Assembly (NCBI GenBank): GCA_951406725.2
Contig: OX597837.1
Coordinates: forward strand, 43,772,001 to 43,836,000
Direction of reading: 5' to 3'
DNA length: 64,000 nt
DNA from: Octopus vulgaris
Lineage: Eukaryota
Position 1 is the first letter of the stretch. Each line of letters opens with the position of its first letter. The notes under the pieces are model-generated. The model was given only the letters and a program-made list of their open reading frames with translations. It was not told where the DNA came from and made no database searches. The translations under genes were made by a program, and so were the position numbers. This document shows positions 3,359 to 48,728 of this stretch, in pieces.

Positions 3359-3406
3359 CTGTGACTGAAGAGGAGATAACCACTCCGAAATGTTTACATC
3401 TCACAG
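3359..3406 (+). ncRNA. Type I hammerhead ribozyme, canonical core
   Basis: Stem I CTGTGA/TCACAG; CTGAAGA at 3365-3371; stem II GGAG/CTCC; GAA; stem III ATGT-tt-ACAT; cleavage triplet ATC, cut after 3400. Confidence 0.85.
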
Positions 3407-3453
3407 TCTGGACACATGGCGCCGTGAGCTGACTTAAGTGCATTTACACCTTT

Positions 3454-3633
3454 AATTATTATTATTATTATTATTATTATTATTATTATTATTATTATTA
3501 TTATTATTATTATTATTATAATTATCATCATCATCACCATCATCATTATCATCATTATCATCATCATCATCATCATCATCATCATCATCATCATCATCAT
3601 CATCATCATCATCATTGTTATTATTATTATTAT
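3454..3633. repeat. (TTA)n/(TCA)n microsatellite
   Basis: Directly visible. Confidence 0.95.
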
Positions 3634-3899
3634 TTCTCACTGATAAATACGGTGAGAAATTCTCTCCTTCACAAAACATAGTAAATGGCTTGTTTGCGAG
3701 TTCGAACTCGTAATAACGTTGCATTCCTACAGACCTATGCTTAGCGCTCCCACACCGTAACTAATAGAAATGCCCGCTGCTCCTTTCCACAAAGAAGTGG
3801 GCAAAGTTTTGTTGGGAAAATAGCAAAAAAGTAAAAACGCACTCAGTACATAACAAGAAGCACAGCATGCAGCATCTGTACTTGACGGCTGGGAATCTA

Positions 3900-5365
3900 A
3901 TATGATAATGATTAAGATGATGATGATGGTGATTATGATAAAGATGACGGTTGTGATGACGACGAAGATGATGATGATAGTGATGATGTTGGTACTACTG
4001 CTGATGATGGTGATGGTAATGATGATGATAACGATAACGATGAAGATGATGGTGGTGATGATGTTGATGATCATCATAATCATCATCATCGCCATCATTA
4101 CCATTATCATCCTCATCACCATCTCCATGAGGATGATGATAATGATGTTGTTGTTGATGATGATGATGATGATGATGATGATGATGATGATGATAATGTT
4201 GTTGATGATGGTGACGATGAAGATGATGATGGTGATGGTGATGAGGATGATGATCATGATCATGATCAGCATCATCATCATCATCATGGAGATGGTGATG
4301 ATGGCGATGATGATGATAATGATGATCATGATCATGATGGTGATGGTTATGAGGATGACGAAGATGGTAATGATGATGATTATTGATGATGATGGTGAGG
4401 AGGAGGAGGAGGATGGGGAACGGAGGGGTATGGTGGTGGGGTGATGATGATGAGGATGATGATGGGGATTGTGATGGTGGTAATGATCATGATGGTGAGG
4501 ATAGTGATGATAAGGATAATGATGATCATCATGATAACGTTAATGACAGACGACGGCAGATGACAATGATCGCAACGCTGACGACTGCAACGCTGGCCAC
4601 TCCAACGATGACCATCTCAACGATGACGATTGCAATGATGACGACCGCAACGACGACTATGATGATCATCATCACCATGATCATGATCATGATGACGCGA
4701 CGACGATGACGATGGTAATGATATTAATCAAGGGAATGGTGGTGGTTTTCTTGATGGTGATGATGACGAGTTGGAGGAGGAGGGGGATGAGGTGGGGGAG
4801 AGGATGGGGTTGAGGAGGAAGGGGAGGAGCCGAGAAGGAGGAGAGGAAGAGGACGGGAAGAGGAGAAGGAGGGTGAAGGGGAGGAAGATGAAAGGGAGGA
4901 AGATGAAGAGGAGGAAATGAATGGGGAGGGAGGAGGAGGAGAGAAGAAGGAGAGGAGTCGAGGAGGATGAAGAGGGGGAGAAGGAGGATGAAGAGGGGGA
5001 GAAGGAGGATGAAGAGGGGGAGAAGGAGGATGAAAAGGAGGAGGAGGGGGAGGAGGAGGGTGATGAAGAGGCAGAGGAAAGATGAGGAGGAGGAGGAAGA
5101 GGGGAAGGAGGAGGAGGCGGTGGAGAAGTGAGAGGAGGAGGTGGAGGAGGAAGAATAAGAGGAGGAGGTCGATGGCGACCATGACGAAGAAGACGATGAC
5201 GACAATCCCAACGATGACGACGACGATGATGATGATGGTGATATCGATGACAAAGACAATAACGACGATGACAACGGTAATGATGATGAGGATGACCACG
5301 ACCACGCCCACAACGACAACGCTGAAGCTGAATAACAACAACAACAACAACAACAGCAGCAGCAG
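3900..5365. repeat. Degenerate trinucleotide low-complexity block (GAT/GAC/GAG/CAA) with a short 21-bp minisatellite near 4963-5030
   Basis: Directly visible; it explains the poly-M/I/D/P ORFs in all frames. Confidence 0.9.
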
Positions 5366-45329: not shown

Positions 45330-47928
45330 CCTTCTAAGGATTCTATCAGCTCCCTGCCATCGCTGTTGTCTATATTTGATGCTCCCTATTTCGCTAATTT
45401 AACTGTTTTTCTGTTTCCCTTAATATTTATTTTCCATCAGAAACAAAATATTCATTCGTATACGTTTGTATAAGCAATAGCACTTCCTACTACGTACAAA
45501 CCTCGGAATTTTGGAGGAGTGGGCTTGTGGATTACATTGACTCCAGTACCAAATCGACATCGGCAGCATATGGACTTACAACGTGAATTCGGAAAAAATG
45601 CCGCTAAGCATTTTGTCCGGCGTCCAAACGATTCTGCCTGCTCGCCTTAAAATATATTTTCCGTCAGCGACAAAAGCGTTTTCACTTCCCTTTGGGGAGA
45701 TCGACTTAATAGGGAAACAGCCGTACAATCCTTAATATACATTGTGTTTACTCCTTAATCTAATTAACGCAATGTACCATGCATTGTTTTAGCCTTCAAA
45801 TGAAGCCACCCCACTGGCTAGGCGAGCTGGCCAACATTACCCCCTTATCGAAAGGGTGACATGAGCAACGTGAAATGAAATGTTTTGCTCAACAACGCGC
45901 CGCCCAGTCTGTGAGTCGAACCTACGACCTAACGTTCGTGGGTGCGACAGCTTAACCACTACGCCACTCGCACTTTTACGTATTATAGACTTATAACCAA
46001 TTTATTGCACATAATTTTTAACATCTTATATGCACCTTCCCCAAGAGTCATGTGCACCTCGGTCGAGAAGCACTGTTCTAACAAAATAATCCGGATATTT
46101 ATGCTTCATTATCTATGCAAAATAATCCACCGAGTTTCGTGGCTTCCTGACAGACGAATCTTACAATTAGCTACAACGCCACTCTATCGCACATGCATAT
46201 CTTAATACTAGACGCCTCTTACTGCAATGCACTTAGCCGAATTCTAATGATACTGAAGCCGAACAATTCCACTCTAAGTGCCAACTTTCTAATAAACCTA
46301 GACACACACACACATATGCACTCACGCAACAAGTAGACACAAAGATATATATATATATGTATATATATATATATATATATATATATATATGTGTATGTAT
46401 GTATATATATATGTTTATATATATGTATATATGTATATATATATATGCATATATATGTATGCATATATAAATATGTATATATATGTATGTATATATATAT
46501 GTATATATGTATATATATACATATATATATATGTATATATATATGCATATGTATATATGTATACATATATATATATGTATATATATATGTTTATATATAT
46601 GTATATATGTATATATATATATGTATATATATATATATATATATATATATATATATATATATATATATATATATGTATATGTATATATTATATATATATA
46701 TATATATATATATATATATATATATATATATATATATATATATATATATATACACATATATATATATGTATGTATGTATATATATATATATATATATATA
46801 TATATATATGGAAAAATGGGAAAAGATCATGATTATAATTACATAGATCATGCTTATATAATATTTACATATATTAGCAGAAATATATAAATTTATATAC
46901 GAAACAAATGGATTTATACTTACATTTATGTATCACATGATAAGTTTCTATACAAGAAGTTACTGTTTATATAAGAGGATACACTGTTTATATAAAAGAC
47001 GATACACACACACACACACACAGATATATTTGTATATATATACGTACAGGTAGTGTATGAATGTATATATTTGAACATACGACTCTTTTGTTGTTAAATA
47101 TACAAACATAAATATTATTATGTACTTCCAAATAGATATATAAAAAAGTTTTCAATACATATATTTACTATTTATAAGAAAACTTTGCTCGTCTGTATAT
47201 ATATATATGTATGTATGTATATATGTATGTATGTATGTATGTATGTATGTATGTATGTATGTATGTATGTATGTATGTATGTATATATGTATGTATGTAT
47301 ATATCTATGTATATATGTATGTACGTATTAACTTGTCATGAGCCAAAGAAGCAGTATTGGTTCAAAATAGCAATTTTTATATCATACTTAAAGAAGATAA
47401 GTCTGCTAAATTTGGTACTCGTCTCGGGAAAGCATTTCTTACAAACGTATTCTGTTAAAGAACACCATAATATTTAAGCAGTATATATATTTCTTTAATC
47501 TCTTCAATATTTACACACGACAAATACCCAAACATAAACCTGGTATAGGATAAGGCTTGAGGACAGTATTGGATAATTTCGGGAGTGGAAGAGCTTCATA
47601 CTGTATTCTGCCACGTTCCCAACGTATATATATATGTGTGTGTGTGTGTGTGTGTGTGTGTGTGTGTGTGTGTACATGTATGTATGTATGTATGTATGTA
47701 TGCATGTATGAATGTATGGTTGTACGTATGTATGTATATATATATATATATATCAATATCAGGGTGGCAAAAAATTCAATAGAAATTATTTCGCCACCAG
47801 CGGTCTAGTGAGAAAGAAAAAATAGTCAACAGACTATATAATGTACATTCAACAATAATATTAAGGAATGGCTTTAATAAGTCATTCAACTCACTAAAAC
47901 GAGCAGCCATATATATATATATATATAT

Positions 47929-48140
47929 TGTTATATTTCGGAATGGTCATTTTGCCAGTTTAGCCAATAAAAACACACGCACTATATATTTGGTGTTACT
48001 TTGCTTCAGTGTTATTTATTTTTTACATTAATCTTAATCTTATTTCTGCCAGAGTTCTTTCGTCACACTCCTGTGACCTCATCAGTGGTCCTTTGTTTTC
48101 TTCTTTCTTATTTGTGTCTCTCTTTACTAACCGTCAGCCA
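47929..48140 (-). mobile_element. PLE pseudo-LTR-like element (family P4)
   Basis: Lies between (TA)n tracts; fragments of the same sequence at 37475-37533 (opposite strand) and about 55010-55065. Confidence 0.6.
48049..48088 (-). ncRNA. Minimal type I hammerhead ribozyme, canonical core
   Basis: Minus strand CCA-CTGATGA-G-GTCACA ggag TGTGAC-GAA-AG aa CT-C-TGG; CUC triplet. Confidence 0.75.
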
Positions 48141-48186
48141 TTATATATATATATATATATATATATATATATATATATATATATAT

Positions 48187-48728
48187 AAATACATTAAAAG
48201 GCTTCCAAATAAATAAGCGAGTGCTAGATACACAAAAAGGGGATAAATTCATGAAATAGAATGAAAATCAAAAACGTTTACCAACTCAGCTAATCCTGTA
48301 CTGCAGTTTCATCTTTTTTTTAGCAAATGAATAGAATTTATCTGCCAAGGCCAGAATCGTCAGCAGGAAGCCTTTGTAATCCGAACTGTACATACTGTTA
48401 GAAGCACGTGCAAATCTAACGATCTGAATACCCTAACTTTTCAGACCGGTGCGCAGACGCAAATCATACCCGGCGACAGAGAGGATGCCGGTAAAAATTT
48501 ACGAGCAAATTTATCGAGCAATATTTAAACATAGTAAATAGGGTAATAAAAATATATTATTTATCATTACCAGTGACCTAGCACAAAAGACGATTTAGTC
48601 ATTAGACTATACGTTATTCATATATAAATACATTAAAATGCTTCCAAATAAAGAAGCGAGTGCTAGATACACAAAAAGGGGATAAATTCATGAAATGGAA
48701 TGAAATCAAAAACGTTTACCAACTCAGC
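48187..48728 (-). mobile_element. ~439-bp unit plus ~103-bp terminal direct repeat with a hammerhead (retrozyme / PLE pseudo-LTR-like)
   Basis: 48187-48290 is repeated at 48626-48728; the hammerhead at 48294-48368 abuts the repeat boundary; flanked by TA tracts. Confidence 0.75.
48294..48368 (-). ncRNA. Type I hammerhead ribozyme with extended stem II
   Basis: Minus strand TCCTG-CTGACGA-tTCT...TTGGCAGAT...ATTTGCTAA...AGAt-GAA-ACTGCAGT-A-CAGGA; palindromic stem III, GUA triplet. Confidence 0.75.

Follow-up and report, generated by a model that had tools for sequence, protein, structure and literature searches.

Hammerhead ribozymes in the truncated ends of Penelope-like elements (PLEs), the diversity of their families, the bias of these elements toward microsatellites, and their retrozyme offshoots are already published (see also bioRxiv 10.64898/2026.07.22.740005 and the review PMC6765202), and PLE expansions are reported in octopus (in parts of PMC13282606 and PMC8967140). 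Here, we examined 64,000 nt of the Octopus vulgaris genome (GenBank assembly GCA_951406725.2, contig OX597837.1, positions 43,772,001–43,836,000 of the forward strand), referred to below as the window, in which a first-pass annotation had described a very dense and diverse population of hammerheads. The type I hammerheads in the window are real and above chance, and we consider it quite likely that they are the ribozymes of 3′ pseudo-long terminal repeats (pseudo-LTRs) of PLEs, mostly 5′-truncated copies that were inserted at microsatellites and that belong to many families over a long time. The source PLEs were probably in large part of the Neptune type. We found no hammerhead census for octopus in the literature, where Lunse et al. 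(RNA Biol 14:1499) could contain one and may also treat variants with C4 or a long stem. Only the crowding is unusual here; otherwise, this is a rich patch of elements whose kind is already known.

In the sections of PMC4209133 that describe them, the minimal hammerheads of PLEs are of type I, with an extra nucleotide after A9, a short palindromic stem III, and a U-rich 5′ flank; they include a U3-A8 variant and occur as many families per genome, mainly in solo truncated PLE copies. The window hammerheads resemble them in these respects: among 12 motifs, an extra nucleotide after A9 was modelled in eight, stem III was a perfect palindrome in six, and the 5′ flank was 72–85% pyrimidine in five. 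They differ in that five carry 30–60-nt insertions in stem II and that the families designated A and B below carry C4 and U6 in the core; the published RNAmotif descriptor (PMC4209133, Fig. S7) had no match in the window as written and three when C4 was allowed. With the endonuclease-bearing (EN+) PLEs Neptune and Hydra, as treated in parts of PMC8557442, the window shares a microsatellite bias ((TA)n for Hydra), a hammerhead in the pseudo-LTR, partial tandems, inverted truncated copies, and a one-sided tail (30–40 bp according to Craig et al. 2021, in the same source), and its coding relics share a CxxC linker and, at the C-terminus, a GIY-YIG endonuclease; unlike these PLEs, the window has no full element, and the likeness is at the level of PLEs, not of a clade for each hammerhead family. 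Animal non-LTR retrozymes (parts of PMC7229834 and bioRxiv 10.64898/2026.07.22.740005) are likewise short, non-coding, PLE-related type I hammerhead units for which dispersed monomers are described, and the motif at 3359+ (plus and minus signs give the strand) and a 438-nt unit in the window are similar to them; however, retrozymes are defined in those accounts by tandem hammerhead units and circular RNAs, neither of which was found here. Poseidon PAc of Anolis (parts of PMC11167929) likewise has an AT-rich target and, in its insertions, a hammerhead that lies ~90 nt from their 3′ end, but it belongs to another clade, and its mechanism is borrowed below by analogy.

Hammerhead motifs and their families

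The window is AT-rich and microsatellite-rich (164 tandem-repeat rows; 14% masked as microsatellite). A strict descriptor (CUGANGA core, stem I of ≥4 bp) gave three matches against a mean of 0.00 in dinucleotide shuffles, of which 60 were global and 60 local, and a relaxed core gave six against 0.10 and 0.17 in the global and local sets. When a graded descriptor, composed after the sites had been seen, was applied at its main cut-off of score 18, 11 matches were obtained against a mean of 0.95 (maximum 3) in 20 local shuffles; the reversed window sequence gave one. Shuffled sequence, proposed as a control by the first-pass annotation, thus did not reach a similar rate, and the type I architecture and coordinates of the main sites held: 10 of the 12 scored ≥18 (3359+, 7109+, 7282+, 8410+, 14346−, 14869−, 32735+, 33341+, 48049−, and 48294−). 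Of the other two, 25638− scored 15.7, and 33547− was missed at score 12, although by eye only the base of its stem II is mismatched and the rest is intact. Five further sites had been listed as weaker or decayed. Three of these stood, namely 32985−, which passes with a score of 24 (U3-A8 core, A9 lost), and two decayed family B copies: 30523+, recovered by a covariance model (E 0.014), and its 76% homologue 39444+. By contrast, 34764− and 38967+ were supported neither by the graded descriptor nor by the covariance model. Beyond family A and the first B copy, the covariance model reported one site at E <0.1. A repeat with two copies (26012–26156 and 50515–50664; 77% alike, ending near TA runs) has a hammerhead-like first half; it was rejected as a hammerhead, having GAAU in place of GAAA.

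With the Rfam Hammerhead_1 model, also suggested as a check, no window motif reached the gathering score (34 bits), and when three sub-regions were searched by E-value, only 7281–7385 matched, below the cut-off (27.2 bits, E 1.6e−4). The best 150 of 705 rows of a whole-window E-value scan were nearly all microRNA models on microsatellites. Standard annotation thus misses the motifs, none of which is found by the published descriptor or, at the gathering cut-off, by Rfam. Their spread is patchy, since no site beyond 48.4 kb has a graded score of ≥14. The sites, their elements, and the PLE coding relics in the window are as follows.

3359–3406, plus strand: canonical type I hammerhead (folding z −3.4), cut after 3400, extended long stem I, U at 1.7, A closing loop II; (ATT)n starts 54 nt past the cut
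7037–7241, plus strand: family A copy 1; minimal hammerhead 7109–7143, cut after 7139, C4 core, additional A after A9, stem III ACGU; flanked by (TA)n arrays
7279–7567, plus strand: long-loop-II hammerhead element; hammerhead 7282–7384, cut after 7379; 5′ truncation just before stem I; (TA)n at the end
8340–8552, plus strand: family A copy 2; hammerhead 8410–8444
14247–14460, minus strand: family B copy 1; minimal hammerhead 14346–14383, U at core position 6
14802–15260 (5′ limit approximate), minus strand: element end; hammerhead 14869–14918, C4 core, long stem II, stem III an 8-nt palindrome
22512–23627, plus strand: decayed end of a Neptune-type PLE open reading frame (ORF); iE 0.0014, tblastn E 2e−16
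25611–25810, minus strand: island with a weaker hammerhead (15.7) at 25638–25707, stem II carrying two inserted hairpins; ends at (CA)n
30425–30643, plus strand: family B copy 2; decayed hammerhead 30517–30565
30737–30945, plus strand: second GIY-YIG relic, Neptune type, frameshifted; tblastn E 5e−4 and 3e−3
32571–32849, plus strand: long-loop-II hammerhead 32735–32817 in an older foldback, with a diverged (68%) inverted partner upstream of the hammerhead; ends at (TA)n
32896–33197, minus strand: head-to-head pair; hammerhead 32984–33025 on the minus arm
33271–33465, plus strand: family A copy 3; hammerhead 33342–33374
33547–33622, minus strand: long-loop-II hammerhead in decay, which by eye retains its core, its stem I, and a stem III that is an 8-nt palindrome
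39167–39518, plus strand: family B copy 3, the longest; decayed hammerhead near 39444
47929–48141, minus strand: element with hammerhead 48049–48088 (graded descriptor, score ≥18)
48188–48728, minus strand: partial direct tandem of 438-nt period; one hammerhead, 48294–48368, with palindromic stem III; ends at (TA)n

The motifs took three shapes: among 13, one was canonical (3359+), seven were minimal or near-minimal (the three A copies, the first B copy, 14869−, 32985−, and 48049−), and five had the stem II insertions (7282+, 25638−, 32735+, 33547−, and 48294−). Tail-only pieces of the 48049− family were present at 37473–37532 and 54993–55099. Family A (7109, 8410, and 33341; 95–96% alike over aligned columns) and family B (14346, 30523, and 39444) align along their whole length, i.e., they are related, so that the roughly ten unrelated families first claimed become A/B plus nine singletons. 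Core position 4 is C in all three A copies and core position 6 is U in all three B copies; because they are common to all copies, C4 and U6 belong to the master copies and are not products of decay. In one sequencing run (X7), U accounted for 27% of the summed depth at core position 4. All three A copies have a common 5′ end, whereas the 5′ extent of the B copies differs. We infer that family A and the 438-nt unit are probably non-autonomous; what had been presented as a radiation of non-autonomous derivatives narrows to these two, the rest looking like ordinary 5′-truncated ends of many families.

Insertion anatomy and the link to Penelope-like elements

Partial tandem, inverted 5′-truncated, or one-sided-tail forms like those of PLEs were observed at 3 of the 13 sites. 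At 48188–48728, a 103-nt tail is duplicated ahead of the 438-nt unit, starting ~10 nt past the cut site. The repeated tail is followed at 48600–48630 by an internal TATATAT, exactly where the second copy meets (TA)n, which suggests priming by microhomology to the target. The head-to-head pair at 32896–33197 consists of two 104-bp arms, 98% alike, that point outward into (TA)n on either side; the inverted arm begins at GAAA, and a ~47-nt tail is present on one side only. The proposed bias toward microsatellite or TA targets was borne out, as (TA)4 or longer lay within 130 nt downstream of the cut in 7 of 13 motifs against 21% expected (P 0.01). The distance from cut site to microsatellite was 30–188 nt in all 13, a figure that allows short (TA)3 runs and has no computed null. 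The motifs had also been placed in 150–550-bp islands bounded by (TA)n; 9 of the 13 do lie in islands of this size, but the bounding microsatellites are of any kind and the enrichment is modest.

The two decayed relics of GIY-YIG endonucleases (22512–23627 and 30737–30945) were assigned to the Neptune type by reading the linker motif, not from a tree. The first comprises a thumb piece, the CxxC linker, and the endonuclease, with a SINE-like (short interspersed element-like) repeat interrupting the ORF, and no passing hammerhead was found downstream of it. Its part at 23349–23630 gave no result in a word-index search and was found by a full HMMER search. A tblastn search of the window with 35 PLE proteins gave nothing below E 0.008, and Pfam recognized no PLE domain in the frames scanned, which comprised 57 read-through frames and, of 197 open frames, 127.

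Outside the octopus window, a metagenome scan with the family-A core pattern returned at least 120 loci (99 distinct), which were taken as host-animal DNA. The first three pairs of stem I, which lies outside the search pattern, form in 95, 82, and 77 of the 99 distinct loci listed. Stem I of the family-A core also covaries in 14 hand-picked rows (0 of 500 shuffles), whose relatedness was not controlled. PLE coding sequence occurs ≤900 nt upstream in 14 of the 120 loci listed, nine of them in sense (duplicates and weak matches included), and among the matches listed, eight of the nine sense PLE ORFs end 84–118 nt before the hammerhead. One locus (L033) encodes a reverse transcriptase plus a GIY-YIG-type end. 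Many loci, including L011, L021, L023, and L044, have an inverted truncated hammerhead copy directly upstream, with a junction as at 32896–33197. The PLE origin first suggested from the letters alone is thus supported by the partial tandem, the head-to-head pair, the endonuclease relics, and the position of the family-A core ~90 nt behind PLE ORFs in other animals.

These forms would be explained by the following sequence of events. The GIY-YIG endonuclease of a PLE would nick AT-rich or microsatellite DNA; reverse transcription would begin within the RNA, at a point ~100 nt 3′ of where the hammerhead cuts, and mostly stop early; and almost every copy longer than ~150 nt would retain the hammerhead and lose the ORF. 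Template jumps would give rise to the partial tandem and to the head-to-head copies, short non-autonomous riders may have arisen in one or two lineages (family A and the 438-nt unit), and the copies would mostly be inert and decay after insertion. In the Anolis PLE, according to the parts of PMC11167929 that treat this point, the ORF has the cut site 26 nt from its beginning and the start of reverse transcription 111–118 nt from it, i.e., the start lies 85–92 nt 3′ of the cut site; the target is AT-rich, and insertion occurs without cleavage. Because the cut sites lie near the start of PLE reverse transcription, most copies would keep the hammerhead by default, and by this analogy hammerhead density would simply count PLE 3′ ends.

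Several observations weigh against the PLE origin as set out here. A profile search ties no window hammerhead to an upstream PLE coding sequence. The sole in-window ORF link, a motif at 39167–39225 (the 5′ end of family B copy 3) that by eye keeps the register of the last residues of the Neptune endonuclease C-terminus, was noticed post hoc (one match against 0.05 per shuffle) and was not detected by DNA or protein profiles of that C-terminus. In the metagenome loci, two slid controls for stem I were also high at some pairs, one of them reaching 84/99 and 85/99 at two of the three, because one family dominates the loci. The outside relatives examined are those of the family-A core, not of the nine singleton families. 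(TA)5 was found within 400 bp in none of the 99 distinct loci, so the family-A core has no TA bias of its own. Finally, 3359+ is canonical, not minimal, and could derive from a retrozyme.

The last point leads to the alternative that non-LTR retrozymes gave rise to most elements as monomeric offspring, in that their hammerheads would process short tandem units into circular RNAs, which a PLE reverse transcriptase would copy. Besides the architecture of 3359+, the fixed 5′ end of family A and the partial tandem at 48188–48728 speak for it, the latter representing 1.2 units of the 438-nt period with the repeat starting just past the cut site. In addition, one X7 contig (depth 17) runs from the tail end of family A (7218) back into its start (7047) with no TA in between, which hints weakly at a dimer or circle; however, it is 1 of 5401 contigs and may be a genomic dimer. 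No two tandem units each with a hammerhead were found in the window, the canonical fold is missing in 11 of 12 motifs, and the 5′ extents of the B copies are unequal. We therefore regard a retrozyme origin of most elements as unlikely. That the motifs are chance folds, collected by a loose descriptor in AT-rich and repeat-rich DNA, is extremely unlikely and is refuted for the set by the shuffle comparisons, the repeated families, and the outside relatives. Per window, chance would nevertheless yield ~1 match when the cut-off is 18 and 8.65 when it is 12, and with 34764− and 38967+ unsupported and no Rfam match at gathering, single weak sites may be chance.

Predicted folding and host RNA

The remaining alternative is that the ribozymes are active in host transcripts and cut introns or pre-mRNA, either alone or as dimers of neighbouring copies; the first-pass annotation had suggested pre-mRNA cutting by sense-strand copies for the case that the window lies in an intron. 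In canonical hammerheads, loops I and II contact each other through U1.7 and A. Among the window motifs, only 3359+ may form this contact, and its active fold lies 0.7 kcal/mol over the minimum free energy. In the other 11 of 12 motifs, stem I and/or stem II has a mean pair probability of <0.5 in the native context, with 3359+ alone forming both. Accordingly, 3359+ is the sole predicted active monomer and would be the sole plausible cutter, if transcribed. Family A also abounds in two sequencing runs that are guessed to hold RNA, and its copies 1 and 2 lie on one strand, 1.3 kb apart. However, to form a double hammerhead from these two copies takes +24.9 kcal/mol in their native RNA of 1.5 kb, and the cores are variant in all A (C4) and all B (U6) copies. 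Pfam found no host exon in the 57 read-through and 127 of 197 open frames, where small exons could be missed, and the strands of the hammerheads are balanced (6+/7−). Minimal PLE hammerheads are reported to cleave poorly even as dimers (in part of PMC4209133), and cleavage by the Anolis PLE hammerhead requires protein, with no RNA-seq ends at the cut site in the part of PMC11167929 that concerns it. Cutting of host pre-mRNA thus found no support and is very improbable. Under the PLE origin, most copies would be inert after insertion, that is, solo, dependent on a dimer partner or a PLE protein, and decaying.

Pyrimidine tracts lie directly 5′ of the core at 7070–7122, 14380–14420, and 14915–14960, and with an AG inside the core of families A and B and of 14869−, they could act as a 3′ splice site, whose use would split the ribozyme. 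For families A and B, no loose read ends were seen there among the rows listed. The tract needs no splice reading, since a U-rich flank belongs to the published consensus of minimal PLE hammerheads.

Density, abundance, and implications

The graded descriptor found nine matches in 182 kb of flanks of the metagenome loci, i.e., 3.2 per 64 kb (0–3 in five shuffles), so by a like-for-like descriptor the window is denser than other animal DNA, as claimed, but only ~3.5-fold (P 0.005). This comparison used 97 of 114 flanks after duplicate removal, and because the flanks adjoin a hammerhead, they may overstate their genomes. Published counts, as given in parts of the respective sources, include about 2,000 plus 1,300 minimal motifs for Schistosoma, 9,000 for Xenopus, and 4,000 for coelacanth (PMC4209133); hammerheads numbering >6,000 for Acropora, ~5,000 for mussel, and as many as 120,000 for axolotl (PMC7229834); and 235 Rfam matches in giant squid (PMC6962438). 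The 11 matches in 64 kb cannot be compared with these counts, since no motif here fits the published minimal descriptor.

Parts of 7036–7568 were present in sequencing runs under four organism labels. Family A dominates the X7 contigs: its summed depth reaches 1.5 million, compared with ≤403 for the 7282+ element; summed depth is no copy number, and X7 and a further run, X14, are only guessed to be RNA. In the only run recorded as RNA, 0.04 of the words were present. The raw DNA runs X23 and X24 (1.9 Gb each) yielded 9 and 45 reads, far below the expectation for a family of 100,000 copies; these figures give no copy number, since recruitment can drop reads and only the species label links these runs to the window, and an extrapolation to the whole genome has no support. 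A 113-bp island without a hammerhead at 7587–7699, between (TA)n arrays, has a summed depth of up to 103,000 in X7/X14 and is probably the tail-only end of another family. It is conceivable, though quite improbable, that this animal group carries several hundred thousand hammerheads, far above any published genome and overlooked because its largest families have non-canonical cores (C4, U6), that family A represents a non-autonomous PLE rider of 200 nt with fixed ends, and that the copies both transcribed and active (canonical ones such as 3359+ alone, minimal ones with a PLE protein or partner) are numerous enough to cut host RNA and make circles transcriptome-wide.

Other repeats accompany the hammerhead elements. 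Five tandem 217-bp units at 2158–3205 end 150 bp before the hammerhead at 3359; the unit contains no hammerhead, ARAGORN found no tRNA, and one stretch is what we take to be B-box-like. A GC-rich 198-bp island (6289–6486) lies between two pure (TA)n arrays, without a hammerhead or another match in the window, and an element resembling a miniature inverted-repeat transposable element (6558–6981), with terminal inverted repeats of ~60 bp, also lies between (TA)n arrays. A mariner transposase relic (7760–8330; PF01359, E 1e−14), head-to-tail SINE-like units of 158–184 bp (12849–13326, 44912–45280, and 51485–52225; 2–4 copies, 88–96% matches), and decayed coding relics that by eye resemble long interspersed elements and have no Pfam match (230–1130, 57060–57520, and 60380–61250) were also observed.

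If the window is typical, the genome would be a natural library of unusual richness for variants of the hammerhead (C4, U6, U3-A8, and branched stem II), and some short repeats filed as unclassified SINEs would be PLE ends. It would also be a place to ask why PLEs retain a ribozyme that is unneeded for insertion in vitro.

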